A stretch of DNA of 64,000 bases, from NCBI GenBank assembly GCA_041600755.1, contig JBFIJL010000001.1:56798-120797 (forward strand), read 5' to 3'. Made by a program: the position numbers and the translations under genes. Shown piece after piece: positions 3,199 through 57,795 of the stretch. The notes below the pieces were generated by a model that was given only the letters and a program-made list of their open reading frames with translations, ran no database searches and was not told where the DNA came from. This stretch comes from Candidatus Saccharimonadales bacterium (lineage in GTDB: Bacteria > Patescibacteriota > Saccharimonadia > Saccharimonadales > JAXHNE01). How positions within the stretch are numbered: position 1 is the stretch's first letter; every line of letters starts with the position of its first letter.

Positions 3199-5421
3199 CT
3201 AAGTAATTTTTTCCAGTGGTGCAAACTGGATATTGAGCGTCTTATTACCTTTGGATTTGAAATAAATAGTCGCTGTATCGCCATCCATCGATATGATCTT
3301 GCCAATACCAAATAGCTGGTGTTTCACGGTGTCGCCTTCATCAAGGGTTGGGTACTCTTGGCTTTCGTCATAGCTTGGCATGTCGTCAACAAACTGCGGT
3401 GGACGGGGCGGCTTGGGCGCCTCGGTTGGTTTAGTATACCCAGACTGCTGCCTGTCAGCGAACGACTTGAAACTTCCACCAGACAATCCAGCCGCTCGTT
3501 CTGAATCGAGCAATGAACTGTCAATTTCACTCATAAACCTACTAGGTGGATTATGTTGCACTCCTCCGTATAACATTCTGCTCACGGCATGCATCATATA
3601 CAATTCTGATTTTGCACGAGTCATACCCACGTAACACAACCGACGCTCTTCTTCCATTTCTGACTGATCGTATAATGCCCTGGAATGTGGGAATAGCGAC
3701 TCCTCCATGCCCATCATGAACACCACCGGAAACTCCAGACCTTTTGCAGCATGGAGAGTCATAAGCGTAACTGCATTACTATTTTCATCAAAGCTATCCA
3801 GGTCGCTTACGAGCGCAATTTCCTCTAAGAATCCATCAAGTCCTACATCTTGGTATTGTTGTGCTACGCTCAAAAGCTCTTGTACGTTTTCTTTACGCGA
3901 TTCGCCCTGAGCTGAGCCGTCATCTATGAACGCCAAGTAGTCCAAACGCTTCACGAGAGCCTCCAGTAGCTCCGGAAGAGGTCGGTCATTCATGACTTCT
4001 CTGAAGCTGATCAGTAGGTCTGCTATGTCTCTGAAGCCCTTGATGGCTTTTGGTGTTAGTTTCATTGAGTCTACGTCAGCCAGTGCCTGAATTAGGGTAA
4101 CCCCACTCGCATTCATGTAATCATTAAATACTTGCAGCGATTTTGCACCAATGCCTCTCGTCGGTGTATTTACAATCCGCTGAAAACTCACCCGATCTTC
4201 GGGCTGATACAGCAAACGCAAGTACGCCATTATGTCCTTGATCTCCTTGCGATCATAAAATCTAACACCGCCAACAACACGATATGGCACTCCATAGCGT
4301 ACGAAAGCTTCTTCGATGGACCGACTCTGTGCATTCGTTCGGTAAAGAACTGCAAAATCCTTGAACTGCCGGAGTCCATGTTGCAGTGCAGTTTGTACTC
4401 GCGTCACAACGAGCTCTGCCTCTGCGCGCTCATTAAAAGCCTCGATAACCTTAACTGGCTGACCTTTAGCACCATCTGTCCATAGCTGTTTTTTGGAACG
4501 CTGCTCATTCTTGGTAATCACCGCGTGGGCGGCATCCAGAATTGCTTTGGTGCTGCGATAGTTTTGTTCCAGCTTGATTACAGACACGCCTGGATGATCA
4601 TTTTCAAAATTTAGAATATTGCGGAAATCTGCACCACGCCAAGAATAAATACTCTGCCAATCATCGCCAACAACAGCTATATTGTTTGCCGAGCTTGTGA
4701 GCAGTCGCACCAGCTTATACTGCGCAGCATTGGTGTCCTGATACTCATCAATCATCACGTATTTGAATTGCTTTTGCCACTTTGCGCGGATTTCTTCGTG
4801 GTACTCCATGAGATGCACTGTCTTAGAAATCAAGTCGTCAAAATCAAGTGCTCCGTTATCCTTAAGCATCTTTTCGTACAAGGGGTAGACTTTTGCGGCA
4901 GCGACTTGAGTTGGACTTTTAGTCGAGCCGGCAAATTTATCAGGTCCAATCAGGTCATTCTTGGCGCTACTAATAACATGGGATAGGCCACGGGCTGGAA
5001 AAGCTTTCTCGTCAAGCGACAAACGCTTACTGACTTGCTTAATGGCTGACTGTCGATCAGATTCATCAAAGATTACAAAATTTTTAGGCACACCAACGTG
5101 ATCGCCGTCTTGGCGAAGTAACCGCACACAAATACTGTGAAAGGTCCCCATATACGGCATAAAACTTCGGTTATCCGGGTTTTGTCCCAGTAGCTCTGCA
5201 ACGCGAGTTCGCATTTCACCCGCCGCCTTGTTCGTGAACGTCACCGACAATATGTTATATGGTGTAGCCTTTTTGGTATCGATAAGATAGGCAATGCGAT
5301 GAGTAAGGGTTTTTGTCTTGCCAGATCCGGCGCCGGCCTGAATCAGTAATGGACCTTCGGTCGTCTCGACCGCACGTCGCTGTTCATCATTTAATCCTGT
5401 AAGTAAGTCATTTTGCATGCT
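3199..5421 (-). CDS. uvrD: ATP-dependent DNA helicase UvrD/PcrA family
   Basis: LNDEQRRAVETTEGPLLIQAGAGSGKTKTLTHRIAYLI (motif I) and DEYQDTN (motif II). ~740 aa with a C-terminal extension (…GIGKIISMDGDTATIYFKSKG). Confidence 0.9.
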   Translation of the reverse strand, partial: SMQNDLLTGLNDEQRRAVETTEGPLLIQAGAGSGKTKTLTHRIAYLIDTKKATPYNILSVTFTNKAAGEMRTRVAELLGQNPDNRSFMPYMGTFHSICVRLLRQDGDHVGVPKNFVIFDESDRQSAIKQVSKRLSLDEKAFPARGLSHVISSAKNDLIGPDKFAGSTKSPTQVAAAKVYPLYEKMLKDNGALDFDDLISKTVHLMEYHEEIRAKWQKQFKYVMIDEYQDTNAAQYKLVRLLTSSANNIAVVGDDWQSIYSWRGADFRNILNFENDHPGVSVIKLEQNYRSTKAILDAAHAVITKNEQRSKKQLWTDGAKGQPVKVIEAFNERAEAELVVTRVQTALQHGLRQFKDFAVLYRTNAQSRSIEEAFVRYGVPYRVVGGVRFYDRKEIKDIMAYLRLLYQPEDRVSFQRIVNTPTRGIGAKSLQVFNDYMNASGVTLIQALADVDSMKLTPKAIKGFRDIADLLISFREVMNDRPLPELLEALVKRLDYLAFIDDGSAQGESRKENVQELLSVAQQYQDVGLDGFLEEIALVSDLDSFDENSNAVTLMTLHAAKGLEFPVVFMMGMEESLFPHSRALYDQSEMEEERRLCYVGMTRAKSELYMMHAVSRMLYGGVQHNPPSRFMSEIDSSLLDSERAAGLSGGSFKSFADRQQSGYTKPTEAPKPPRPPQFVDDMPSYDESQEYPTLDEGDTVKHQLFGIGKIISMDGDTATIYFKSKGNKTLNIQFAPLEKIT

Positions 5422-5439: not shown

Positions 5440-6093
5440 CTACTGTGCAAAAAGGTTGTGATTTTTCTCAATCACTTGCGACATGAATGTCTCGAGGTTG
5501 GTTTTGGCTTGTAGAGCACGCGCTTCGCACACATTTGCCTTCGCCCCACAATCATTCTGATAGTCTGCGGTCGCCACGAACATGTACTCATGAAACTTTA
5601 TAGGCGCTAGCATCGCAAAGCGACGATAATCATCGCGCACAAACCATCCGGCATGCACACCAACGCTGTTGATTTCGACCCGCTGCAGAGTACAGGCTTC
5701 ACCTGCAAATTGTCGTAGTGCGCCATCGTAGACACAAGCTTGCTGCTCATCGTCAAATGGGTCGTAGGCGGGGTTTCTAGAATCGTAGACAGAAATTGTA
5801 AAGTCGCGCGTGGCATAGCGGCTCTGAATATCTAGGTTGGTGAGCGGCTCAGCGATAAATGGTGCTTGGTGAGAAGGGAAAACTATCCCAAATCCCTGTC
5901 GATCAAAGTAAAAAGCTTCAAATCCCTGGGGTGGCTGCAATGACCCGTCATTATAATCGCGAACAAGCTCAAGTGGAGCGACATGTTTTGGCTGCTGCTG
6001 CAAAGAAATCACTACCCACACGCTTGCTGCGCCAACGGCTACGATAACAAAAAAATATAGCCAGCGAACTGTTGATCGTGAGTAGCCTCGCAT
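5440..6093 (-). CDS. Hypothetical membrane-anchored protein
   Basis: One N-terminal TM segment (WLYFFVIVAVGAASVWVVISL) followed by a soluble domain; no recognisable family. Start trimmed to an internal Met to avoid overlap. Confidence 0.4.
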   Translation of the reverse strand: MRGYSRSTVRWLYFFVIVAVGAASVWVVISLQQQPKHVAPLELVRDYNDGSLQPPQGFEAFYFDRQGFGIVFPSHQAPFIAEPLTNLDIQSRYATRDFTISVYDSRNPAYDPFDDEQQACVYDGALRQFAGEACTLQRVEINSVGVHAGWFVRDDYRRFAMLAPIKFHEYMFVATADYQNDCGAKANVCEARALQAKTNLETFMSQVIEKNHNLFAQ

Positions 6094-6097
6094 GCCC

Positions 6098-6700
6098 CTA
6101 TAGGAACTCAAAAGGTAAATGAATGCCCGGGAGTAACAATTCCGCGTCAATAGCCAAATAAAGACCGATGATTACACACAAAACGAACAGACTTATGAAT
6201 AGCTCAATTCGCAAGCGACGTTTTGTCAGTTGTGCAATTGGCACGAAATAAGTCTTTTGCTCTATGTGATTATTCAAGGCTTCACGAATCTTTGGGTCTT
6301 CCTTCTTGGATTTCTTGGCCTTAATCGCGACATCGGCGAGCGCGTCAACAGCGGCAGAAGACATTGAAGGCGCATCGGTGGATGACTCCTTTTTGGTACT
6401 TTTAGTTTCAGCTTCATCGGACTTTGAATCAGTATCAGCTGGTTGTTCTGATTCTTCATTAGCCAGAGGCTTTATTGTTTTTTTGGGCTCAGATGGAGTC
6501 TGAGCTGCTTCTGTCTCTTCAACTGAAGACTCTTCTACTGCCTGATCAGTTTTAGGAGCATCTGCCATCATGGGATCCTTCATCAGTGAACGACCTTTTA
6601 AAATTACTGGTCGAGATGTGGCGCTAGCTGGTGACTTACCGGGAGCGGCAACATCAAAGACTCGCTTGGTTTCAGTGCTTGGTATACTCTTCTCTGCCAC
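6098..6700 (-). CDS. Hypothetical acidic protein with C-terminal TM anchor
   Basis: 200 aa; E/S/T/K-rich low-complexity N-terminal part and a C-terminal hydrophobic helix (LFISLFVLCVIIGLYLAI). Confidence 0.4.
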   Translation of the reverse strand: MAEKSIPSTETKRVFDVAAPGKSPASATSRPVILKGRSLMKDPMMADAPKTDQAVEESSVEETEAAQTPSEPKKTIKPLANEESEQPADTDSKSDEAETKSTKKESSTDAPSMSSAAVDALADVAIKAKKSKKEDPKIREALNNHIEQKTYFVPIAQLTKRRLRIELFISLFVLCVIIGLYLAIDAELLLPGIHLPFEFL

Positions 6701-6709
6701 AGCTTGGGC

Positions 6710-7510
6710 TTATCCGTTCTTCTCTTGAGTCATGTCGTATGCAGTACTTACCATGCTCGAAAATGCATGATAGTTAAGACTGGCGCCGCCGGGAAGCAAT
6801 CCATCAATACCGGGTACACTCAAATACGATTTAGCATTCTCGGCATTCGTGCTTCCACCATAAAGAATACGGACGGTCTCTGAAGCCTTTTTACCGTATA
6901 GATCCTTAATCACGTGTCGAATGTATGCAGCAATGTTTTCAACATCTTCAGCAGTTGCCACTTCGTGATTGGCGTAATTTTTGCCACCGCTAATAGCCCA
7001 CACTGGTTCGTAAGCAACTACCACTCGCTCGATGTCATCTGAAGTTAAATTACTAAGAGCCGACACAATCTGGTCGTGCACAACTTGCTTGGTTTCGCCT
7101 GCCAATTTTTCGTGTTTAGTTTCGCCAACACAAAGAATCGGTGATATATCATTACGAACGCACGATGCGACCTTATCTCGAACAACCTCAAGTGTTTCAC
7201 CGAATGCATTGCGACGTTCTGAGTGTCCAATAATCACATAATGCACAAGATCGCGAAGCATCGTAAAGCTCACCTCACCAGTAAATGCGCCTTCGTCCTT
7301 ATGGTAAGCGTTCTGAGCTGCTAGCCTAAACTTACGGCGGTCGATCTGCATAGTCAACGGCTGCAAGACTAAGGTGCTTGGAGCCAGCACTACTTCGACA
7401 TCACGATGAATCTTGATTCTCTCATGCAAACGATGAAGTAGCAGACTAGCCTGACTCGCATTCAGATGCATCTTCCAATTTCCTACGATGATTTTTTTTC
7501 TATTATTCAT
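6710..7510 (-). CDS. tpiA: Triosephosphate isomerase
   Basis: IIVGNWKMH N-terminus, ...GHSERR..., ...YEPVWAIG... motifs. Confidence 0.9.
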   Translation of the reverse strand: MNNRKKIIVGNWKMHLNASQASLLLHRLHERIKIHRDVEVVLAPSTLVLQPLTMQIDRRKFRLAAQNAYHKDEGAFTGEVSFTMLRDLVHYVIIGHSERRNAFGETLEVVRDKVASCVRNDISPILCVGETKHEKLAGETKQVVHDQIVSALSNLTSDDIERVVVAYEPVWAISGGKNYANHEVATAEDVENIAAYIRHVIKDLYGKKASETVRILYGGSTNAENAKSYLSVPGIDGLLPGGASLNYHAFSSMVSTAYDMTQEKNG

Positions 7511-10966: not shown

Positions 10967-12559
10967 TTAGAGGAAGCGTCGTGAAAGAACAATTTTGTGA
11001 GCGAATCCTGCGGCAATTGTAGCTGCTGCAAAGATGCCGATCATATCTGCTGGGCCTGTCTTTGGAAGTTCAGGCGTAACACAGTCAGGGCTGTTCTTTG
11101 GCAAGTTTTCTTTGCCTGGGATTGGGCAGTTCTCAACTTCTTTTTCGGTGTTGATAACAACCTTACAGCTTTCGCCTGACTTGCTTTGCACTGCACCATC
11201 AACATTGAAGTCAACAGTTAGGGATGCAGCATAGTCGCCAGACTTAGCATATGTGTGCTCAACAACTGTCTTGTCGGTCACCATAACTTCAGTCTTGTCG
11301 CCAAAGTCATATCGGTATTGCTTGATAGTCGCACCGCCAGTAGCAGTAGCTTTCGCAGTGAACTGGTATTTTAGGTTTCCTAGTTTCTTTAGTTCAAGCA
11401 AATCACAGCTGTAAGTAGGCGTTACTTCATCACAGTTTTCTTTTGTGACGATAACTGTAGCGTCATCTTCCTGTTGAGTAACATCATCTGCTCGAACTCG
11501 AGCAATGTTCTTGAGCGTAGTGACACACTCTTCGAGCTCGCTTGCCGCTGCAATCTTGGTGTCGAACGTAATGTAGCCATTCGAACCGCTCGTGTATGAA
11601 CCAGCGTTTACGCCGTTTGAGTCAAACAAATCTTCGTCATCAAGTGCAAGTCCGTTTTTGTGAGCTGCGTCTACTAGCTTTACGCTTCCGTCGACAACAT
11701 CAAGGTTCGCAGGAAGCGTATCCTTAATGGTTGTATTGTTCAACTGTGCAGTTCCAACGTTCTTATATGTAATGAGCCACTTGGCTATGTCACCTGGTTT
11801 TGCGTGAGCTGAATCCTGGTATGATCCATCACCAACTTTCACTTTCTTCTCAAATTCAACGGCAGGGGCCTTTACTTTAACCTTGATGTACACGAACGCC
11901 TGGTATTCGAAACAACCTGGCAATACACCATTCAACTGATTGTAGCCAATCGTTGCGCCGTCAGTCACGATGCTATCGCTAAGAGCAAATCCCGTGCCAC
12001 CGTTATGACCAGTTACGAGCGTTGCAGAGCCTGGAATATATTCAAGACTGAAGGCGTTTTCGCCAACAAACTCAGATGTATCAGATACAACTGCAGGGGT
12101 TGCGTTACTTGCAGAGATATAGCTTGTAGCTTTTAGATTCTGTGCTGTTCCTGTAGGGAGCTTAAATCGCACTTTTGCGTCCTTTGCAACAGTAGGTCCG
12201 TCGTAGTTCTCGCCATTCAAGTCCTGGTTGCCGTTGTTGTGAACATACACACGAAGCGTAAGTTCATCTCCAGCGTCAACGCCGCCAAGAACATCCTTAT
12301 AGTTGTCTGCCGCATCGTTCCCAACACCTTCACGAGCATCAAAGAAATGCCGTTCATCACCGTAGTATGGCGTGTTGACGAACGAGTTGAATACGACCTT
12401 GTCGAATCCACCTCGGTCTGTAGTATTATTCCAATCCTTTATAGGGCGTTCTGGGAAGAAGCCGGCAAAAGCAATGGCAGGAACTGCGATTGCAGTTGCA
12501 GCAAAGATTGCAAGTGTTGCCTTTTTGCTGTTAGCCTTGATGTATTGTAGTACTTTCAT
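10967..12559 (-). CDS. Secreted surface protein with LPXTG cell-wall sorting signal
   Basis: N-terminal signal peptide (MKVLQYIKANSKKATLAIFAATAIAVPAIAFA). C-terminal LPKTGP + hydrophobic stretch + RRFL tail = classical sortase substrate. Confidence 0.75.
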   Translation of the reverse strand: MKVLQYIKANSKKATLAIFAATAIAVPAIAFAGFFPERPIKDWNNTTDRGGFDKVVFNSFVNTPYYGDERHFFDAREGVGNDAADNYKDVLGGVDAGDELTLRVYVHNNGNQDLNGENYDGPTVAKDAKVRFKLPTGTAQNLKATSYISASNATPAVVSDTSEFVGENAFSLEYIPGSATLVTGHNGGTGFALSDSIVTDGATIGYNQLNGVLPGCFEYQAFVYIKVKVKAPAVEFEKKVKVGDGSYQDSAHAKPGDIAKWLITYKNVGTAQLNNTTIKDTLPANLDVVDGSVKLVDAAHKNGLALDDEDLFDSNGVNAGSYTSGSNGYITFDTKIAAASELEECVTTLKNIARVRADDVTQQEDDATVIVTKENCDEVTPTYSCDLLELKKLGNLKYQFTAKATATGGATIKQYRYDFGDKTEVMVTDKTVVEHTYAKSGDYAASLTVDFNVDGAVQSKSGESCKVVINTEKEVENCPIPGKENLPKNSPDCVTPELPKTGPADMIGIFAAATIAAGFAHKIVLSRRFL

Positions 12560-12584: not shown

Positions 12585-14141
12585 TTAGTCTTCTAGCTCA
12601 ACTTCAATTGGAGCGAGGCCGTTTGGTGCACTCGAGTATCTTCGACGCTGCTCGAATGTGAGTCCTGCAATGCCTCCGGCTGCAATGACTGACATTGGAA
12701 CCGGCACAGTGCCGTCACTTGGTGATTCAGGTGTATTAATTGGCTCATCAGGAGCTTCTGCTTCAGGGATGCTGGTCGTAGTGTTTGGGTTCTCACCTGG
12801 CAAGTAACCATCCTCGTCTTGACCTTCATTATCAGTGTCAGGAACATTCGGATTCTCGCCTGGATCTCCAGGTTCTTGATCCTCATAACCAGGAATTGTA
12901 GGAAGCGGTTTAGGTGTCTTGGGAGTCGTAGTGGTTGTTGTCTCTGGGGTAGTGGTCGAAGTGGTGGTTGTTGTCTCTGGAGCAGTAGTAGACGTGGTTG
13001 GTGGGGTTGTAGTTGGAGGAGGGGTCGTTGTTGTTGGTGGGGTTGTAGTTGTAGGAGTTTCCTCTTCTGGAGTTTCAGGGATTTCAACAGAATCAAACGG
13101 CTGGAAGCCACAGTCTACGCGTGCTGCAATAGTCTGTACATTGCCGTCTTCGTCCAAGAAGCTAATCAAAGCGATTGCGTCATTGGCGCCAACTGCACGG
13201 TCGAGGTCATATGCTAATACGCCGTTTGCGTTATAAGCCATGTTCTTGTAATTTGCGCTATCAGAATTGAGTGTTACAACCCGAATTTCTGTTATATCAG
13301 AATTAAATATACGAGTATCTTCAAGCATAGACTCAGGTACACCGGCGTTCTTCAATGCTTCCTTGAGTACATCGCCTTGGTTCTGCTCATAACCGTTTTG
13401 TGCAGTCAGCATGTTTTGACCCATTTCAATTGCGCCGTTAGTTGTAATTTCTGAACCATTCCATGTTCCACCATTAAGAGATGAACCACTCATTTCGTGC
13501 ACGCCTGGAAGTTCTGCGTCTTTATCGTTTATAAATGTAACGTCGTCCATAGAGAGACCTATCGATTCAAGTTTTTCAATCTGATCAAGTCGCATCTCGG
13601 CACGGTTTCGGTTGGTTAGTTCACCTGATGCTTCAGCTTCGGATGCATCATTGTCGGCTTGTGTAGTCTCGGTGGTCTCTGAAGTAGTGGTGGTTGACCC
13701 ATCAACAGCGCCAACGATTTCACGGTGCGCTGGCTTATCTGCTTCGTTTTTTGCAAAAGCAAAGATTCCAGCAGCAACAACTGCTCCAAGTGCAGTAGCG
13801 GCTATCAATTTTCTGCCTCGACTCCACTTGCCTTCAGGAGCAGCCTCATCGTCAGTAGCTTCATCGTAATCATTCTCGCGACGCTTTTCACGCTCACCGG
13901 CAAACTTGCCTTTTGTCCCTTGTTCAGGCACCAAAATAGGCTCAATTTCTTTTTGATCCTGATCAAAAAGCTTTACTTCATCCTTTTCGACACTACTCTT
14001 CAGCAATGCGCCACTTTCCATAAAAGTAGCAAGCTGCGCTGACATGGCCTGGACCTGTTCTCGAAGTTCAGCTATTTCTGCACGCATCTGGTTAAGTACT
14101 TCAGATTCTGGATACTGTTTTAAAATTTCTGGGTTGCTCAT
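12585..14141 (-). CDS. Membrane-anchored Thr/Pro-rich (mucin-like) surface protein
   Basis: TM helix near residue 115; long TTTTPPTTTTPPPTTTPPTT low-complexity linker encoded by DNA-level tandem repeats at ~12900-13080; C-terminal hydrophobic segment. Confidence 0.55.
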   Translation of the reverse strand: MSNPEILKQYPESEVLNQMRAEIAELREQVQAMSAQLATFMESGALLKSSVEKDEVKLFDQDQKEIEPILVPEQGTKGKFAGEREKRRENDYDEATDDEAAPEGKWSRGRKLIAATALGAVVAAGIFAFAKNEADKPAHREIVGAVDGSTTTTSETTETTQADNDASEAEASGELTNRNRAEMRLDQIEKLESIGLSMDDVTFINDKDAELPGVHEMSGSSLNGGTWNGSEITTNGAIEMGQNMLTAQNGYEQNQGDVLKEALKNAGVPESMLEDTRIFNSDITEIRVVTLNSDSANYKNMAYNANGVLAYDLDRAVGANDAIALISFLDEDGNVQTIAARVDCGFQPFDSVEIPETPEEETPTTTTPPTTTTPPPTTTPPTTSTTAPETTTTTSTTTPETTTTTTPKTPKPLPTIPGYEDQEPGDPGENPNVPDTDNEGQDEDGYLPGENPNTTTSIPEAEAPDEPINTPESPSDGTVPVPMSVIAAGGIAGLTFEQRRRYSSAPNGLAPIEVELED

Positions 14142-50402: not shown

Positions 50403-51917
50403 CTATTTAGCGAATTCTATTGCTCGTGTTTCACGAATGACATTTACTTTGACGGTCCCTGGATATTGCATAGTTGATTCGATCTTGTTGGCGATATCAC
50501 GCGCCAATCGAATTGCTGACAAATCGTCAATTTCACCAGGCTTCACAAACACCCGAACTTCACGTCCAGCGCTAATTGCATAAGACTTCGTGATGCCCGG
50601 GAAGCCATTTGTGATGTTTTCGAGGTCACGCATGCGCTCTGCAAAGTTTTCTGCAGACACGTTGCGCGCACCAGGCCGAGCGGCACTAATTGCATCAACA
50701 ACGCGCACAATCAATGCTTCTGTAGTTGTAGCCTCCATGTCATCGTGATGTGCTTCTGCGGCGTGGCATACTGCCTCTGGAGCACCGTACTTACGGAGCA
50801 TCTCGCCGCTTATGTGATGGTGCTTGCCTTCCATCTTGTGTGTAAGGGCCTTGCCAAGGTCATGTACGAGCGCTGCGTACTTGGCAATCTTCACATCCGC
50901 ACCAAGCTCTTCGGCGATAATCCCGGCAATATGTGCCATCTCGGTACTGTGTTTGAGTACGTTTTGTCCATAGCTTGTTCGGTATTTGAGTTCACCAAGC
51001 AGCTGCAATACTTCTTTTGGAATGCCAATAATGCCCACTTCTCGGGCTGCATCTTCACCGGCTCGCATAACGTCTTTTTGGACCTGCTTTTGAGCTTTCT
51101 CGACAATTTCTTCGATTCGGCCTGGGTGAATGCGACCATCCTTCATGAGCATCTCAACGGTAACTCGCGCGACTTCACGGCGAATTGGATCAAAACTGCT
51201 TAACACAATCATTCCTGGAGTATCATCAACCATGATGTCAACACCGGTTGCGCGCTGCAGCGCCTGGATGTTGCGACCCTCCTTGCCAATGAAGCGACCT
51301 TTCATGTCGTCGTCAGAAAGCTTAACGGCACTCACTGTGCGCTCAGCTGTAACTTCACTGGCCATGCGCTCCATCGCTCCGACCAAAATTGCAGAGGCCT
51401 TTTCTTCGGCATCTTCTTTCGCCTCATTCTGAAGCTTAGAAACCAAACCAGTTAGATCTTCACGAATGTCGCGCTCGGTCATTTTCATAAGCTTCTCGGC
51501 TGCATCTTCTTTTTTCAGCTTAGCAACTTTTTCCAACTTTTCTTGCTGCTTGACACGAATGTCGCGAATCTCGTTCTTGAGGCTCTCTACTTCGTCTTCG
51601 CCTTTCCGAAGTCGCTCAGCTCGCTTATCCAGCTCGTCCAGTTTGTTGTCGAGTGTTTGTTCGCGCTTGGCAAGGCGTTGCTCGGTTTCTTTTAATTCTT
51701 TTCGACGAGACTCTTCGTCTTTACGGGCTTGGTCACTAACTTTGGCGGCCTCTTTTTTTGCTTCTTCCAACGCTTTTTCGGCTTCTTTTTTAGCCTTGGC
51801 TCTTTCTTTGTCGGCGGCAGATTTTGCAGCCCCCATTTTTTTGCTCGTAACTGCATTGCTTGCGCCAAATCCAGCAACTACTCCGCCGATGGCGAGTATT
51901 ATCGTCAGTGGTTCCAT
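50403..51917 (-). CDS. rny: Ribonuclease Y
   Basis: N-terminal TM, Lys/Glu-rich coiled coil, KH domain (FIGKEGRNIQAL...), HD domain (…HSTEMAHIAGIIAEELGADVKIAKYAALVHDLGK). Confidence 0.9.
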   Translation of the reverse strand: MEPLTIILAIGGVVAGFGASNAVTSKKMGAAKSAADKERAKAKKEAEKALEEAKKEAAKVSDQARKDEESRRKELKETEQRLAKREQTLDNKLDELDKRAERLRKGEDEVESLKNEIRDIRVKQQEKLEKVAKLKKEDAAEKLMKMTERDIREDLTGLVSKLQNEAKEDAEEKASAILVGAMERMASEVTAERTVSAVKLSDDDMKGRFIGKEGRNIQALQRATGVDIMVDDTPGMIVLSSFDPIRREVARVTVEMLMKDGRIHPGRIEEIVEKAQKQVQKDVMRAGEDAAREVGIIGIPKEVLQLLGELKYRTSYGQNVLKHSTEMAHIAGIIAEELGADVKIAKYAALVHDLGKALTHKMEGKHHHISGEMLRKYGAPEAVCHAAEAHHDDMEATTTEALIVRVVDAISAARPGARNVSAENFAERMRDLENITNGFPGITKSYAISAGREVRVFVKPGEIDDLSAIRLARDIANKIESTMQYPGTVKVNVIRETRAIEFAK

Positions 51918-52097
51918 CTTTTTTCCTTTCGTTAAAACCTCTGAAACCGCCAGCATCACTATCACTTCATTAGTTGGTCGAAATCAGAGAAAATCAAAAA
52001 TTCAGTGGACTCTCAAAATAAATCCTACCCATAACTATACGTGCCCGCGGCCTCATTCGCAATCAAAACTATTGCAACATATCGACCCGTTGTTTAA

Positions 52098-52916
52098 CTA
52101 CTGCTGTACAGCAAACACGATGATGCGCTGGTCGTATGAGCTTTCTGCGTAATTTACATTCCCCGTACAGGTTATTAGGCTTAGACCGGGCACACCTTGC
52201 TCGGCAGATATTAAAGCAGCATTCATGTTCACCTCGCTGGTCGGTGATATCTCGCTTCTCACAACTCGATAATTAAACACCTTGCCGTCGCCACGCTCAA
52301 CCTCAATCACGTCTCCTGCTACTAAATCTCTAATACCGTAGAAGACCCCTTTCGTACTTGGGCCATGCACATGACCATCAATTAATACGGCGCCATGCTC
52401 ACCAGGCTTAGAACTGCCTTCATACCATCCAGTGTCATATATATTTGAAGGTGCTTCTAGCTCATTCTTAGAGTTGACTCCCAGCTGCAATATACGAGCC
52501 TCGACTCCAAGTTTCTTTATCCTTATAAATCTTGGCTGATCTGGCGCCACAGCATAACTTCCGACATTGCTTGGTGGCGTCTCATCTGGTACAACGCGAT
52601 CCGAGCTACCCTCCTCTGCACTTTGTTGCAGGTTATGAATCTGGGCTTCAACTTGCTGATTTACCTGGTCGCCTTGCAACGCGACGAATGCTCCAATTAC
52701 AAATATTGCGCACGCCATCACCGGAAATGTGAGCTTCATTAATGCAAAACGCCTTTTTATAGCCCTCTTCGTTGACTCATACTCGTAGAATACCTTCCGT
52801 GTGATTGTCGCCCTTTCTTCGTAAGGACGCCTTACGATTCGCTGCGCACCACGGCCACGAAGCGCCACAGACGGGCGCTTCGCATAGTCGAATTTGTCTC
52901 GAGATGTACGTTGCAT
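52098..52916 (-). CDS. Sortase family transpeptidase
   Basis: N-terminal TM; catalytic His (LIDGHVHGP), TLxTC-type Cys motif (LSLITCTG) and downstream Arg (DQRIIVFAV). Confidence 0.75.
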   Translation of the reverse strand: MQRTSRDKFDYAKRPSVALRGRGAQRIVRRPYEERATITRKVFYEYESTKRAIKRRFALMKLTFPVMACAIFVIGAFVALQGDQVNQQVEAQIHNLQQSAEEGSSDRVVPDETPPSNVGSYAVAPDQPRFIRIKKLGVEARILQLGVNSKNELEAPSNIYDTGWYEGSSKPGEHGAVLIDGHVHGPSTKGVFYGIRDLVAGDVIEVERGDGKVFNYRVVRSEISPTSEVNMNAALISAEQGVPGLSLITCTGNVNYAESSYDQRIIVFAVQQ

Positions 52917-52945
52917 ATTATTGACTGCTCAGTTCGTCTTTATGG

Positions 52946-54610
52946 CTATGCGGAAAACTTGCTGTAGCGTCGACCAAGGAACATGATCGCTCCGGCTGCC
53001 AAGGTGGCTGCAGCGAACATGATGGTAGGGCTGGCGCCAAGTAGACCAAAGCCAGTGTCTGGAGCAGTTGGTGCAGATACGACAGTAATCTCTACATCGT
53101 TACCATCACCACCTACATAACTTACTCTAAAAACTCCACCATTAGCTTCAAAAGTTTCACCCTCGGGCAAGTTTTGGAAGGTTCCCTGAACCGCATCTGT
53201 ACCTTCGTTGTTTATGACAACAAACTTCGTTCCAGCAGCAGGTAAATAATCCCCACTAGGGAAGCTCAGACTTAGTTTAGCGTCGAACAGATGCACATCC
53301 TCGAAGTCTGCAGCTTCAGCATCTGCATTTGTCACCTGCAGCTGGTCATAGCCAGTGCAGGCATCAGCGCCAGCAACTTCTACTATAAAGTTAGCAGCGC
53401 TCATATTTACTCCATCGGTTTTGAGACAGCCAGGGCTATTGCCTACAGCGACATTACTATTCGGATGAGCATTAAAGCCATTAACCACAGTACCTGAACC
53501 CATTAAAGTTGATCCATCATGCAACTCCACGAAGCCGGTAGTACCGTTTACCACTAGGGTGTCCCCAGGAATTACAGAATTAAAGCTAGTATTTTCATCA
53601 CTAGGCGCTATTGTTATTGTTTTATTCTTATACGCTAACGTTTCGTTATTGTAAACAATTGTTCCAGTAGACGATGACGTTTGAATTAAGCTATTCCCGC
53701 CTAGTACCATGTTTTCGAAAACTATCCTCTGCGTGAAGTACGTTGACATATAGGTGTCATCGGTTAGGGTAACGGCACCTGTGAAAGTTGTTGTACTTAC
53801 GCTAATTGGAGCGATTTTTGATACAGCAACGCCTCCGCCACCACCCCCAGAGCATCCGCCAATATATAGAGCTGATTCTGGTAGGCTGCCTGCGATAGAT
53901 ATAGGCTCAGCGTATGCTGTATTAGCTCTGACTATTAGCAGCCCGCCGTCAGATATCGTGGTCGAACCGGCACTAGTTCCTAGTGCGGTACTGTCTTCTG
54001 CGCATGCTACGTCCAACCTACCCAAATCAGCAACTGTAATGTTTCCGGTGAAAGTATTCTTAGCATTTAAGGTTAGGGTAGCGCTCACTAATACATCAAA
54101 TCCACCACTCCCACTTACGATTCCGTCAATTGTAGTATCTCCACTAACGTCAACCGTGTTCGCACCCAGGGCAACGTCACCATCAAGGTTAACTCGGCCA
54201 AAATCAACACCCGCTGTAATAGTAAGGTCGTTTTCTATTGTTAATCCTGCTGTTGTGGAAATAATGTCACCACTTAAAGAAAAAGCAGTGCCGGAAATTG
54301 TAGCAGCATCAGAGTTTGAAGCGTCTTCTGTCCAAGTAATGCTGGTGAATGTAGCACCCACCATGTCGTTTACTGGGTCTTTGACATTAAAGTCTACTGT
54401 TGATGCATCAAAAACTAATGCATCACCAGTTGTATCGAGCTGGTCAACAGAACAGCTCCAGTTACCAGCGGTTGAGAAGTTAGCGTCAGCGCCGCCGCCG
54501 GTCCAGGTGCAGGTGTCAGCTGCCGCGCTAACCATGACTGGCGCAAAGACAAAGAGTGACGACATCCCCAGTACAATGGATGTGCTTAAATTTACTACTC
54601 GTTTTAGCAT
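52946..54610 (-). CDS. Large secreted Gly/Thr/Ser-rich beta-type surface protein with C-terminal sorting-signal-like tail
   Basis: Signal peptide; repetitive G/T/S/V-rich body; C-terminus ...APTAPDTG + hydrophobic helix + RRYSKFSA (LPXTG-like architecture with a non-canonical APDTG motif). Confidence 0.55.
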   Translation of the reverse strand: MLKRVVNLSTSIVLGMSSLFVFAPVMVSAAADTCTWTGGGADANFSTAGNWSCSVDQLDTTGDALVFDASTVDFNVKDPVNDMVGATFTSITWTEDASNSDAATISGTAFSLSGDIISTTAGLTIENDLTITAGVDFGRVNLDGDVALGANTVDVSGDTTIDGIVSGSGGFDVLVSATLTLNAKNTFTGNITVADLGRLDVACAEDSTALGTSAGSTTISDGGLLIVRANTAYAEPISIAGSLPESALYIGGCSGGGGGGVAVSKIAPISVSTTTFTGAVTLTDDTYMSTYFTQRIVFENMVLGGNSLIQTSSSTGTIVYNNETLAYKNKTITIAPSDENTSFNSVIPGDTLVVNGTTGFVELHDGSTLMGSGTVVNGFNAHPNSNVAVGNSPGCLKTDGVNMSAANFIVEVAGADACTGYDQLQVTNADAEAADFEDVHLFDAKLSLSFPSGDYLPAAGTKFVVINNEGTDAVQGTFQNLPEGETFEANGGVFRVSYVGGDGNDVEITVVSAPTAPDTGFGLLGASPTIMFAAATLAAGAIMFLGRRYSKFSA

Positions 54611-54675
54611 TTTATTATCCTTTTGTATTAATTTTTTTATTTTTTGTAGTTAATATTGCTAACATGCTAGCGCTT

Positions 54676-55734
54676 TTATAAATTCATGTCAAATGCTCGG
54701 CTTGATGATGGAGTTGGTCCAGACGGTGTCTGCAGCGAATTTTGGGATGCATTTTCACTGGTGCTGCCCTTCTCCACCGCAAAGACTGCTAGCTGTTTTG
54801 TTGACGAGCTATTGGATTCATACGATGCCATTGTAGACAGCAGATTTAATCCCGGTTGGCTAGCTACAGCTGATTGGGTTAATTCCTGAAAATTTACTGC
54901 ATTCCTGTCATAGGTTTGCATTTTTGCAACGTAATAATGCCTGATGGTACCGTCTCCAAGCCGCACCTGAAAAGTGTCGCCTACAACTAAGCGTGTTAAA
55001 TCATAAAAGACTCCTTGTTTTTCTACGCCGCGCACATGGCCGATGAGTAACGAAGCGCCAGTCTCTCCTGGCTTTGCACTATTTTCGTACCAGCCAACGT
55101 CGTAAATATTCTGAGGCGATTTAGGCTCGCTATTCTGGCGCGTCGTCAATCGAGTTATTCTGGCGTTTATGCCAAGCTTTGTAATTATTAAATTCTGCGG
55201 AAGATCAGACGCCACGGCGTAGTTTTCTTGACCGTACGGCTGCTTGCTGCTTGGTGTGTCACCGTTATCTTCTAATATTTCCTGTAAATCTCTGGTTGCA
55301 GTCACAGAAGCCTGGCGACGATTAGACACCAATACTGTGAGTGAAATGATCAGAATAATGGCAATGAAAGCCACTTTGGGAATCTGTGTAATTTTTGGAA
55401 GCTTCAGATTTAGCTTTTTGAATTTGGTTGTCAACTTGTTCGCCTGTAGCTTAGCTTTTGTCTGCCAACTTGACGAAACTTGAGTTGACGGCGACTCTTC
55501 TCGTCGTGATGCACGATTGCCGAGCGCAATCATATATTCTTGCTCGGTTCCAGGAAGAATCCCAGATGAACGTCGGGCGTACTGTGCTTGTGGGTGCCGA
55601 CGTGGAACCTGCTTGCCAGGCGTGGGCTGCAAAATATGTGGCTTCTTTACCTGGGGAAGTGGGGGTGCAACAAAAACACCATCCATCGAAGATGTTCTGA
55701 CTGGTCGACTTGGTCGAGTAGGTTTGTGCTGCAT
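54676..55734 (-). CDS. Sortase-homologous protein lacking the catalytic cysteine (pseudo-sortase)
   Basis: Aligns with the adjacent sortase: LLIGHVRGV (His kept); the LSLITCTG position reads LNLLSTMA (Cys→Thr/Ser) and DQRIIVFAV reads TKQLAVFAV (Arg→Lys); long Pro/Gln-rich N-terminal region and a TM helix. Confidence 0.6.
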   Translation of the reverse strand: MQHKPTRPSRPVRTSSMDGVFVAPPLPQVKKPHILQPTPGKQVPRRHPQAQYARRSSGILPGTEQEYMIALGNRASRREESPSTQVSSSWQTKAKLQANKLTTKFKKLNLKLPKITQIPKVAFIAIILIISLTVLVSNRRQASVTATRDLQEILEDNGDTPSSKQPYGQENYAVASDLPQNLIITKLGINARITRLTTRQNSEPKSPQNIYDVGWYENSAKPGETGASLLIGHVRGVEKQGVFYDLTRLVVGDTFQVRLGDGTIRHYYVAKMQTYDRNAVNFQELTQSAVASQPGLNLLSTMASYESNSSSTKQLAVFAVEKGSTSENASQNSLQTPSGPTPSSSRAFDMNL

Positions 55735-55789
55735 GTTTATTTTTAGTTTACAGCTTCTACTTTACAAGAATTATTGTAAAGTGACAATG

Positions 55790-56179
55790 CTAGCGCTTTT
55801 GTACAGTGATATGCGGATCAGATCCATAAACAGGAACAATAAACGCTGATCCTGAACCCTCAGCCAATAATTTAACACCACGAATAAGCCAATCGTCCCC
55901 GCTGACACCTGCAATAGGGATTGAATAGCTGTTGGCAATAGCGTTAACGACCGACGCACCAATGCGCAACCCAGTGAAGCTTCCTGGGCCGCTATAAAAA
56001 ACAATGCCATTTATATTTTTCAAGCTTTGAGATTGACGAAGCAATATAGTGTCGATGCGATTCGATATAGTTTCGCCTAGCATACGATGCGCCTTCCACA
56101 CCTCAGAATCAATAACGTTACCTTCTTGCAATAAGTGTAGCTCCGCGTCGGGCTGATCAGTTCGAATAGCCAATATCAC
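55790..56179 (-). CDS. tsaB: tRNA threonylcarbamoyladenosine biosynthesis protein TsaB-like (short, N-terminal domain only)
   Basis: MILAIRTDQPDAELHLL...YSGPGSFTGLRIGASVVNAIANSYSIPIAGVS matches the YeaZ/TsaB N-terminal half; 129 aa. Confidence 0.6.
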   Translation of the reverse strand: MILAIRTDQPDAELHLLQEGNVIDSEVWKAHRMLGETISNRIDTILLRQSQSLKNINGIVFYSGPGSFTGLRIGASVVNAIANSYSIPIAGVSGDDWLIRGVKLLAEGSGSAFIVPVYGSDPHITVQKR

Positions 56180-56196
56180 GTAATGTACACCTATTA

Positions 56197-57288
56197 CTAA
56201 AGTCCTGAACCACTAGTGGACACACTGCAGTCCGTTAAAACCTCAATGCTGACGGATACATTTCTCTCTGAGCCACTATTGCCATCATTTGAATATACAT
56301 AGCTCTTGGGCTGCTGGTACTTGAACCTATTCTGAGGAACGCCACGCTTTACAAGTTCATCCTCGATTTTTTTGGCACGTTGCTCTGCTAAAATCTTACC
56401 AGCTGAACTTTGAGATGATTCATACGCACTGCCCTGTAGTGATATGTTGAAAGCCTTGGATGAATTCTCGTTATATATACGAGCTAGTTCGTCTAGATGA
56501 TCCACTTCAACGTCTGGGTACTTAAACTGGGTGGAGTCTGGCAAGAAAAAGTACGATTGGACGCTATAGCTAGTTATTGAAACCGCCAACTCATTGCCTT
56601 CATCGTCATAATTCTTTTCATATCCAATTGGCTGAAGAGGAATGATTTTTTTAATGTCATCGTGAGTCAGGCAGGCCAGATCATTGACCGGCTGAATTGC
56701 TGTCGGCGCCTCCTCTTGAACCTCTTCTTCTTTGTTGGAATTACTGCTTTCACTAGGAATTAGTTTTAAATCATCTCCAACGAATACAGCTGTAACTTCC
56801 CAAGTGTCATCATTTTTTTCAACGTGTGTTCTGATTTGACCCACCTTGGCACCGCTCAACTCATACAAATAATAGCGAGTACTGTCCTTTGTTGCTGAGT
56901 CAATTAGCTTAAAGCCGTCACCACGTACGCTTTCAGATATTCCAGCAAAGAATTTCTCTGTACTGGCGTCACCTTCGGCAAGATTCTTGACTTCTTCGAC
57001 AGTACCCTTCTGAAGAGTGGTAACAAAGAAGTCCGAAGCTGCACGAGCACGTGCGGCCTGCAATCCAGTCAGCACCATGAAGACAAATATTAATCCTATG
57101 ATCACCGCCAATGCACCAATGGCAATTAAGACAACCTTCAAAATTGAGTTTTTCTTATGAACCGGGTTCGGGACAGTTAGCGGGGGTTGAGGGGGTTGTA
57201 TTGGTTGAGATGGCTGTACTGGTTGAGGGGGTTGTATTGGTTGAGGGGGCTGTATTGGTTGAGGCGTTGGGGTGTTCTGCTGATCCAT
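56197..57288 (-). CDS. Proline-rich membrane protein with C-terminal OmpA-like domain
   Basis: N-terminal PQPIQPPQP repeats (DNA tandem repeats ~57170-57280), TM helix, C-terminal ...LAEQRAKKIEDELVKRGVPQNRF... (OmpA/MotB-like peptidoglycan-binding motif). Confidence 0.5.
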   Translation of the reverse strand: MDQQNTPTPQPIQPPQPIQPPQPVQPSQPIQPPQPPLTVPNPVHKKNSILKVVLIAIGALAVIIGLIFVFMVLTGLQAARARAASDFFVTTLQKGTVEEVKNLAEGDASTEKFFAGISESVRGDGFKLIDSATKDSTRYYLYELSGAKVGQIRTHVEKNDDTWEVTAVFVGDDLKLIPSESSNSNKEEEVQEEAPTAIQPVNDLACLTHDDIKKIIPLQPIGYEKNYDDEGNELAVSITSYSVQSYFFLPDSTQFKYPDVEVDHLDELARIYNENSSKAFNISLQGSAYESSQSSAGKILAEQRAKKIEDELVKRGVPQNRFKYQQPKSYVYSNDGNSGSERNVSVSIEVLTDCSVSTSGSGL

Positions 57289-57339
57289 AAAAAATACTCC
57301 TTATATACTCTTAACAAAATAATAACATAACCGAAATTA

Positions 57340-57795
57340 TCAAATTTTATTCGCCAGCAAATAAGCTAGCGAGGATTCGTACTCAAGATGTATTTCTCGC
57401 ACTGAATCATCTACTGCACTCAAACGTATTGCAAGTCGATTTTCTGGAAGCACATGCTGAGCTCCGTCAGCCCACTCTACGACTACTACCGCACTGGGGT
57501 CTCCAACGAGATCTTCTAGCTCGTGTGCATTCAACCCAGGGTCATTAAGCCTATAGAAATCAAAATGATGAATTTCAAACTTTGGTGTTTCGTATACTTT
57601 GCTAACTGTAAAGGTTGGGCTTGATACTGCATCAGAACTTCCCGCTCCGCGAGCTAGTCCACGCGTAAAAGTTGTCTTGCCGCCGCCAAGATCTGCAATA
57701 AGCTCTATCACTTCACCTCCTTGCAAGCGCTGACCAATATTCATAGCAAAAGCTTCGGTTTCCTCTGGTGATACGGTCGTGATCGTGTATTTCAT
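57340..57795 (-). CDS. tsaE: tRNA threonylcarbamoyladenosine biosynthesis protein TsaE (YjeE ATPase)
   Basis: P-loop LIADLGGGKTTFTRGLARG and overall 151-aa size. Confidence 0.8.
   Translation of the reverse strand: MKYTITTVSPEETEAFAMNIGQRLQGGEVIELIADLGGGKTTFTRGLARGAGSSDAVSSPTFTVSKVYETPKFEIHHFDFYRLNDPGLNAHELEDLVGDPSAVVVVEWADGAQHVLPENRLAIRLSAVDDSVREIHLEYESSLAYLLANKI

Follow-up and report, generated by a model that had tools for sequence, protein, structure and literature searches.

Little is understood of the surface biology of Saccharibacteria, which live in attachment to other bacteria. Here we describe a sortase locus of one such organism from soil, Candidatus Saccharimonadales bacterium, located within a stretch of 64,000 nucleotides (referred to as the window: GenBank assembly GCA_041600755.1, contig JBFIJL010000001.1, positions 56,798 to 120,797 of the forward strand). 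It consists of three co-directional open reading frames (ORFs) on the minus strand with intergenic gaps of 65 and 29 bp, encoding a sortase-fold protein without the catalytic cysteine (PSRT), a putative sortase substrate (SUB) and a sortase with a complete set of catalytic residues (SRT). An earlier note on this DNA had reported the three ORFs, and all were found where it placed them. No sortase homologs other than SRT and PSRT were found within the window.

54676 to 55734, minus strand: PSRT, 352-residue sortase-fold membrane protein lacking Cys and the catalytic Arg, member of the "HAQ" clade, putative pseudo-sortase (Pfam, alignment to SRT, AlphaFold2 (AF2), Foldseek, 17 orthologs)
52946 to 54610, minus strand: SUB, 554 residues, predicted all-β solenoid followed by a sorting-signal tail (AF2, PDB fold matches, about 120 homologs)
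52098 to 52916, minus strand: SRT, 272-residue sortase, predicted intact and nearest to class F, with His182, Cys250 and Arg264 (PF04203, NCBIfam, triad alignment)

Dedicated pairs of a sortase and its substrate are known, such as SrtB with an iron-uptake substrate, the class C sortases with pilins, and the class D sortases (PMC8225981). The locus in the window resembles such pairs in that the gene for a putative substrate with a variant pentapeptide adjoins that of its sortase, an arrangement of SUB and sortase genes that was found in at least 25 loci. It differs from them in that SUB is predicted to form a β-helix, in that the first residue of the motif is small instead of Leu or Asn, and in that the organism belongs to the Candidate Phyla Radiation.

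Among the sortase classes, class F is closest. Its type example is SrtF of Propionibacterium/Cutibacterium acnes (Di Girolamo et al., 2019, as cited in PMC8225981 and PMC13251363), which recognizes LPXTG (PMC8225981), and the physiological role of the class is described as unknown (PMC13251363). The NCBIfam class F model (NF033748) gave the best class score for SRT (110.8 bits) as well as for PSRT (87.2 bits), followed by class E with 34 and 23 bits, respectively. Both proteins score below the curated class F cut-off of 166 bits and below that of every other NCBIfam class. Like class F sortases, both proteins have an N-terminal membrane anchor and a C-terminal barrel, and SRT has the full triad; unlike them, PSRT lacks the Cys and the Arg, and the substrates in this lineage carry [A/T/V/S]PxTG in place of the LPXTG of P. 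acnes SrtF.

The degenerate LytM-domain factors EnvC and NlpD activate amidases and exemplify cell-envelope pseudoenzymes that regulate active relatives. PSRT shares with them a retained enzyme fold, the loss of catalytic residues, conservation and location in the envelope, and they offer a model for how PSRT could work, although fold and chemistry are different and PSRT is often encoded without a neighboring active sortase. Within the sortase family, Bacillus subtilis YwpE, described as a sortase-like ORF that is truncated and for which no role is known (PMC8225981), is likewise a homolog of doubtful catalytic function; PSRT in contrast is full-length and membrane-anchored, has its Cys and Arg replaced by specific other residues and belongs to a conserved clade. 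Searches of the literature for pseudo-sortases or Cys-less sortases and for sortases of Saccharibacteria found nothing relevant.

A conserved sortase fold without catalytic cysteine and arginine

Both proteins match the Pfam sortase family PF04203 (SRT 74.4 bits, PSRT 47.6 bits; cut-off 26.6) and align with each other over 227 residues at 35% identity (BLASTP, E 7e-39), in agreement with the homology proposed in the earlier note. SRT has the triad His182, Cys250 and Arg264 in register with that of the family and an N-terminal transmembrane (TM) anchor (hydrophobic segment, residues 62–80); judged from these sequence features, that is fold, triad and anchor, it is an intact sortase. For PSRT, a profile search of the PDB yielded only two weak sortase matches (4d70, E 1.3e-4; 24rr, E 6.5e-3), and a fold search was therefore needed for confirmation. 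The AF2 model shows a sortase domain (about residues 178–322) with a predicted local distance difference test score (pLDDT) of 84–96, a TM helix at residues 115–138 and a disordered N-terminus, and all 50 best Foldseek matches of this model in the PDB are sortases, belonging to classes A, C, D and E, with E-values down to 4.8e-9. The elements of PSRT on which the following argument draws are:

55591 to 55668, minus strand: Pro/Gln-rich insertion, residues 23–48, in this genome only (gap in all 16 aligned orthologs)
55501 to 55539, minus strand: clade-specific, predicted cytoplasmic motif EYMIALGNRASRR, residues 66–78 (16 of 18 HAQ-clade members versus 0 of 132 relatives)
55324 to 55374, minus strand: predicted TM anchor, residues 121–137, preceded by Lys-rich residues, N-terminus inside (sequence inspection; AF2 helix 115–138)
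55027 to 55047, minus strand: LIGHVRG with the kept active-site His233 (His invariant in the HAQ clade and in His-Cys-Arg (HCR) sortases)
54826 to 54843, minus strand: LLSTMA, degenerate form of the "TLxTC" strand in which Thr301 occupies the Cys position (orthologs read LNLLT[A/S]V)
54784 to 54801, minus strand: TKQLAV with Gln314 at the position of the catalytic Arg (Gln in 100% of the clade, Arg in 100% of the HCR relatives)

In the alignment His182 of SRT corresponds to the retained His233 of PSRT, Cys250 to Thr301 (LSLITC(250)TG opposite LNLLST(301)MA) and Arg264 to Gln314 (DQRIIVFAV opposite TKQLAVFAV). The Thr/Ser that had been noticed at the place of the TLxTC cysteine is thus real, and PSRT does not contain a single Cys; the Lys said to stand for the conserved Arg, in contrast, is Lys313, which sits one position earlier, where 94% of the orthologs have Gln. 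The N-terminal extension ascribed to PSRT comprises about 115 residues ahead of the TM helix; its Pro/Gln-rich part, residues 23–48, is an insertion into an otherwise conserved cytoplasmic region. A Ser/Thr/Pro-rich tail at the C-terminus is a second insertion specific to this genome. PSRT is, in sum, a sortase-fold protein with sortase-like membrane topology in which only one of three catalytic residues remains. It appears to be catalytically dead, that is, unable to carry out thioacyl transpeptidation, since Thr or Ala replaces the nucleophilic Cys and an invariant Gln replaces the catalytic Arg.

The prediction that this paralog is dead gains support from its relatives, and its conservation among them, which the earlier note had suggested checking, is clear. 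A search covering 5.8 billion proteins found 17 orthologs at 47–56% identity, all with a His-[Ala/Ser/Thr]-Gln triad, the Cys position being occupied by Ala in 16 of 19 members of the HAQ clade, so that the nucleophile other than Cys that had been considered for PSRT is unlikely. A Cys elsewhere in the active site, one of two findings that would have spoken against a dead enzyme, is not present either: 15 of 18 clade members are free of Cys, and the Cys of the remaining members is located in the TM helix. The other, a recent pseudogene absent from relatives, does not agree with 17 intact orthologs that share both losses and with the saturation of synonymous sites. Both possibilities were rejected.

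Several further features distinguish PSRT from a decaying gene. Intact ORFs of the PSRT type occur in at least 18 lineages, and 51 columns are invariant in an alignment of the window protein with 16 orthologs (17 sequences). The synonymous divergence dS (Nei-Gojobori) is saturated or cannot be defined in virtually every comparison of two sequences, at a nonsynonymous divergence dN of 0.27–0.52 and a protein identity of about 50–65%, values that are incompatible with neutral decay; with saturated dS no dN/dS ratio can be given, and purifying selection is argued qualitatively. In the three genomes with the complete set of PSRT, SUB and SRT, the conservation of PSRT equals that of its neighbors (54–60% identity, compared with 53–69% for SRT, 43–54% for SUB and 45–52% for tsaB).

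Comparing 18 HAQ-clade members site by site with 132 Cys-containing relatives, we found that PSRT keeps nearly all residues of the family signature, namely P179, K186, R192, P207, D212, GWY214-216, S219, KPG221-223, GA226-227, GH232-233, F243, GD252-253, GLN295-297 and T300. In addition, the clade has invariant ectodomain residues of its own (R199, S202, P204, N218, R277, N308 and Gln314) and a cytoplasmic motif EY[MIL]x[SA]LGxRASRR, present in 16 of the 18 members and in none of the 132 relatives. Since the orthologs are intact, dS is saturated, conservation matches that of the neighbors, signature residues are kept and a new motif has been gained, PSRT is to be regarded as no relic; the comparisons indicate that it is kept by purifying selection and bears the marks of a pseudoenzyme with a function of its own.

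Sortases are defined by their His-Cys-Arg triad and by default regarded as enzymes, and this includes database annotation, as exemplified by the HAQ ortholog MDZ7786474.1 (locus L004 of our survey, 5926–6843), which lacks both Cys and Arg and is labeled "class F sortase" at NCBI, a label that is probably wrong. A paralog that is conserved, under strong selection and by its sequence dead suggests that the sortase fold can serve a purpose other than catalysis, one undescribed in the literature searched.

Gene order and the possible function of PSRT

What could a sortase that probably does not cleave contribute to the cell? The surroundings of the gene in related genomes give some indication. Loci were taken from a scan of one genome per GTDB species (24 loci) and from one metagenome scan (79 loci), supplemented by nine exact-protein look-ups. 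Throughout Saccharibacteria the order recX, a gene for a 177-residue protein, tsaE, tsaB, a slot, rny, and then mostly CYTH and/or ymdB is conserved, and the slot almost always contains genes of the sortase family. In the window its edges are:

55790 to 56179, minus strand: tsaB-like gene, upstream edge of the slot (Pfam TsaD; synteny)
50403 to 51965, minus strand: rny (RNase Y), downstream edge of the slot (74–91% identity to slot-flanking genes elsewhere; orthologs with Pfam RNase_Y_N, KH and HD)

In the at least 25 loci mentioned above, the gene immediately upstream of a Cys-containing sortase is SUB, and at several of these (L009, L032–L034, L066) the pair sits precisely between tsaB and rny. 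The complete triple PSRT-SUB-SRT occurs in 4 of 15 orthologous loci (the window, L027, L028/L029 and L109), and in the other 11 (L001–L004, L025, L030, L110–L114) PSRT has neither SUB nor SRT beside it. In most of these latter loci tsaB and rny are its immediate neighbors (in L112 and L114 the gene that follows is incomplete, and at L001 no rny was found). PSRT is thus retained more faithfully than the active SUB-SRT pair. The triple is found in both subclades of a neighbor-joining (NJ) tree of the HAQ clade, and the SRT copies of the triple loci are each other's closest relatives. The simplest history would start from an ancestral PSRT-SUB-SRT cassette; on several occasions SUB-SRT would then have disappeared or been relocated, with PSRT staying in place. 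In L027 a gene for an IS200/IS605-type Y1 transposase (4597–5208, minus strand) is inserted between the PSRT and SUB orthologs, indicating that the cassette can be interrupted at this point without loss of either gene.

In the reading that we prefer, and to which we assign a probability of roughly 0.6, the window contains an APDTG sorting locus in which SRT would anchor SUB and PSRT would serve as non-catalytic, ligand-binding adaptor, holdase or sensor. After export through the Sec pathway, SUB would stay in the membrane by means of the hydrophobic segment and the basic tail at its C-terminus, whereupon SRT would most likely cleave it between Thr and Gly of APDTG and link it to the cell wall, by analogy with the dedicated sortase-substrate pairs. 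PSRT, a predicted type II membrane protein that keeps the sortase β-barrel, the active-site His and nearly all signature residues, could bind a candidate ligand, either a sorting-signal peptide or a wall or lipid II peptide, and could act across the membrane independently of the neighboring SUB-SRT pair. A ligand-binding role is favored because of the active-site strands, the signature residues, the fixed Gln314 and the conserved cytoplasmic motif.

A number of observations weigh against this reading or limit it. In most loci PSRT occurs by itself, and this speaks against a dedicated role with SUB or SRT. As to a possible operon, consensus scans of positions 51800–57400 for promoters and terminators did not exceed chance level (14 matches versus 9.0±3.5 and 5 versus 4.7±2.1 expected in shuffled sequence, respectively). 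The assignment of SRT and PSRT to class F is a best match only, since their scores fall under the cut-off for the class. LPKTG and APDTG coexist in the genome, so that SRT may or may not prefer APxTG over LPxTG. Finally, all trees in this analysis are NJ trees only.

The first of these observations also gives rise to the main rival: as PSRT usually occurs without SUB-SRT, either any partners it may have are encoded elsewhere in the genome or its function is independent of sorting. In the second case the barrel might have been reused as extracellular binder of peptidoglycan or surface peptides, be it those of the cell itself or those of the host, and be coupled through the TM helix to the cytoplasmic motif. 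PSRT would then serve an episymbiotic bacterium as sensor or anchor, either in the envelope or in host contact. We consider this proposal rather unlikely, though still to be reckoned with. The retention of PSRT alone in 11 of 15 loci after loss of SUB-SRT from the slot would fit it well, as would the cytoplasmic motif absent from all 132 active relatives and the invariant ectodomain residues peculiar to the clade that are named above. It would also fit that no SRT or SUB homolog on the 331-kb and 203-kb contigs with PSRT alone was among the best 120 matches listed, a result that carries little weight and concerns those contigs only. However, other sortases or substrates could lie elsewhere in the genomes with PSRT alone, and the near invariance of the active-family residues, the active-site strands and the His fits retention of an ancestral ligand site better than acquisition of a new one. 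The lineage-wide adhesin-like substrate, its sortase and the family of apparently dead sortases are concrete candidates for surface assembly or host contact.

The substrate and its sorting signal

The proposed role of SRT depends on SUB being a sortase substrate. Three segments of SUB bear on this question:

54521 to 54610, minus strand: predicted Sec signal peptide, residues 1–30, ...VMVSA-AA (sequence inspection; AF2 N-terminal helix with low-confidence junction at residues 25–28)
53051 to 53065, minus strand: APDTG pentapeptide, residues 516–520 (Thr519 and Gly520 invariant, Pro517 at least 90%, in 40 homologs)
52949 to 53050, minus strand: hydrophobic segment (residues 521–546) and basic tail RRYSKFSA (547–554) (sequence inspection, homolog tails)

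The N-terminus of SUB (residues 1–30) follows a basic-hydrophobic-VSA-A pattern and the C-terminus reads ...VSAPTAPDTG-FGLLGASPTIMFAAATLAAGAIMFLG-RRYSKFSA. Between them the AF2 model predicts an all-β solenoid (mean pLDDT 89), followed by a single C-terminal helix at residues 521–553. The best fold matches in the PDB are Ag43 and other β-helical passengers of autotransporters (E 7e-5, at a TM-score of only about 0.23), and the Pfam family PATR scores 14.5 bits on SUB, which is under its cut-off of 27 bits; several homologs carry a precomputed PF12951. These matches are at most suggestive of an autotransporter passenger of the PATR type, and SUB differs from such passengers in that the C-terminus is a sorting signal, the Pfam scan finding no β-barrel translocator domain.

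About 120 homologs of SUB were found, some of them with Pfam PATR, and of the full-length ones, about 85 in number, about 70 have at their end GGDGNDV..LTV...[A/T/V/S]P[D/N/S]TG with a hydrophobic segment and basic residues after it. The first residue of the pentapeptide across the family is A (29), T (24), V (8), S (5), P (3) or L (1). Unrelated proteins encoded beside these sortases have the same type of tail, with APSTG, APLTG, APDTG or APNTA as motif and Ala in the first position in 10 of 18 cases versus Leu in 1. Because the SUB family and the unrelated sortase neighbors both carry it, [A/T/V/S]PxTG is, to judge from these alignments, the normal sorting signal of the lineage and no oddity of SUB. 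What the earlier note had described as an APDTG tail in place of a canonical LPXTG is accordingly there in all its parts, APDTG, hydrophobic segment and basic tail, but it is an ordinary [A/T/V/S]P[D/N/S]TG of this lineage and not unusual. The unlinked protein to which the same note had attributed an LPKTG motif (10967–12559, minus strand) does have it; this PKD/DUF11 surface protein ends with ...ELPKTG, a hydrophobic segment and a basic tail, and no sortase gene is nearby.

Alternatively, APDTG might not be a sortase signal at all, SUB being merely anchored in the membrane by its C-terminus and its adjacency to SRT being coincidental. This would be in line with the first residue not being Leu, with the lack of any Pfam or NCBIfam LPXTG-anchor match on the tail of SUB at E <= 0.1 and with the literature, where a search for natural APxTG or TPxTG motifs found none and APxTG only for engineered SrtA. 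The alternative is nevertheless improbable, as Thr519 and Gly520 are invariant and Pro517 nearly so among 40 homologs whose flanking residues vary, as motif, hydrophobic segment and basic residues are kept together in about 70 of 85 homologs, as SUB precedes a sortase gene in at least 25 loci, and as unrelated neighbors of these sortases end with the same type of tail.

The engineered variants F40 and A1-22 of Staphylococcus aureus SrtA accept APxTG, albeit as products of laboratory evolution and with low activity (PMC8248031). They share with the SUB family the replacement of Leu by Ala in the first motif position and differ in that APxTG and TPxTG apparently are a natural, lineage-wide signal here, the specificity of SRT being predicted from sequence. 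If the active enzymes truly prefer [A/T]PxTG, they would be natural non-LPxTG sortases useful for protein ligation.

Two further groups of surface proteins were noted. At four loci (L074, 4160–8709, plus strand; L082; L086; L091) tandem paralogous surface proteins adjoin Cys-containing sortases and have near-identical tails consisting of APNTA, IQRFILANPVIVAALGITTAAAIF and RRQLGKK; the APNTA is an Ala-first variant recalling the LPNTA motif of class D substrates. In the window, the gene upstream of that for the LPKTG protein (12585–14141, minus strand) encodes 518 residues with a long Thr/Pro-rich linker, ending in a hydrophobic segment and QRRRY; no xPxTG motif was found in this protein.

Recurrent loss of the cysteine

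The HAQ clade is not the only branch of the family to have lost its nucleophile. When 1.84 billion cluster representatives were searched with the PSRT profile (HMMER), 7,972 relatives were found at E <= 1e-3, and the best 150 of these were aligned together with the PSRT orthologs for a table of triads. His-Cys-Arg was found in 132 aligned relatives; other triads without Cys were HSR (5), HAR (2), HTR, HNR, HYR, HFR, HWK, QYR, SAS, AAR and YYT. In the NJ tree the HAQ proteins form a monophyletic group that is sister to the HER clade, with Glu at the Cys position and the Arg kept, which bears a related ..Q[ED]EY[IL].SL motif and members of which stand alone after tsaB in L005–L007. Fitch parsimony on this tree requires at least 6 changes between Cys and non-Cys, suggesting that loss of the Cys recurs at least about 6 times in the sortase radiation. 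Tandem pairs of an active and a Cys-less paralog arise independently at L013 (HCR and HFR), L036 (HCR and HSR) and L041, and a relative at L038 lacks the His as well (NAQ).

Taken further, these data could mean that the HAQ clade is the first recognized family of pseudo-sortases, conserved bitopic membrane proteins in which the dead barrel would still bind peptides of the wall or of sorting signals, such binding being relayed or scaffolded by the cytoplasmic motif, that it represents one of at least 6 separate nucleophile losses among the class-F-like sortases of Saccharibacteria (HER, HSR, HAR, HFR, NAQ and others), and that the active sortases naturally use [A/T]PxTG. In this full extent the proposal is tentative.

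The variety of triads also bears on whether PSRT might still be an enzyme, with Thr301 or Ser300 acting as nucleophile together with His233, or with a hydrolase having replaced the thioester-forming transpeptidase. The His is invariant, the copy in this genome reads Ser300-Thr301 in place of the former TC, and other Cys-less relatives combine Ser or Thr with a kept Arg (HSR and HTR types). Against such an activity, Ala at the Cys position in 16 of 19 HAQ members leaves no conserved side-chain nucleophile, the catalytic Arg has given way to an invariant Gln, the protein is devoid of Cys, and a review gives His-Cys-Arg as the triad in all characterized sortases (PMC8225981), which together make residual catalysis quite improbable. 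That PSRT is a decaying, functionless sortase duplicate, as its two lost catalytic residues and the lineage-specific low-complexity insertions at both ends of this genome's copy might suggest, is hardly credible in view of the intact ORFs in at least 18 lineages at 47–56% identity with 51 invariant columns, the saturated dS at about 50–65% protein identity, a conservation equal to that of its active neighbors, and its retention where SUB-SRT has been lost.

Cys-less homologs in or near the slot are found in many Saccharibacteria (L005–L007, at about 5800–6940; L011; L013, 6480–7388; L018; L019; L036, 1763–2740; L038, 1783–2829; L039; L081). Their Cys position is occupied by Glu, Ala, Phe, Val, Leu, Ser or His, the His and Arg of the triad are mostly kept, and several stand in tandem with an active sortase.

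Some minor observations concern the surroundings of the locus in the window. A σ70-like sequence (54664–54692, minus strand; TTGACA, 17-nt spacer, TAGCAT; 10 of 12 positions) extends over the final codons of PSRT, some 55 bp ahead of the SUB start, such matches in the region being not above the shuffled expectation. The tsaB-like product is short, comprising 129 residues and covering only positions 25–99 of the 264-position TsaD Pfam profile, and it is likewise short (126–130 residues) in every relative examined. Between tsaE and tsaB lies a gene (56197–57288, minus strand) for a protein of 363 residues that has a PQPIQPP repeat in its N-terminal part as well as a TM segment, and whose C-terminal domain weakly matches the OmpA-like, peptidoglycan-binding family (23.7 bits, under the cut-off). 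Homologs of this protein were seen at the same position only in triple loci (the window, L027 and L028), and tsaE and tsaB abut in the loci with PSRT alone.

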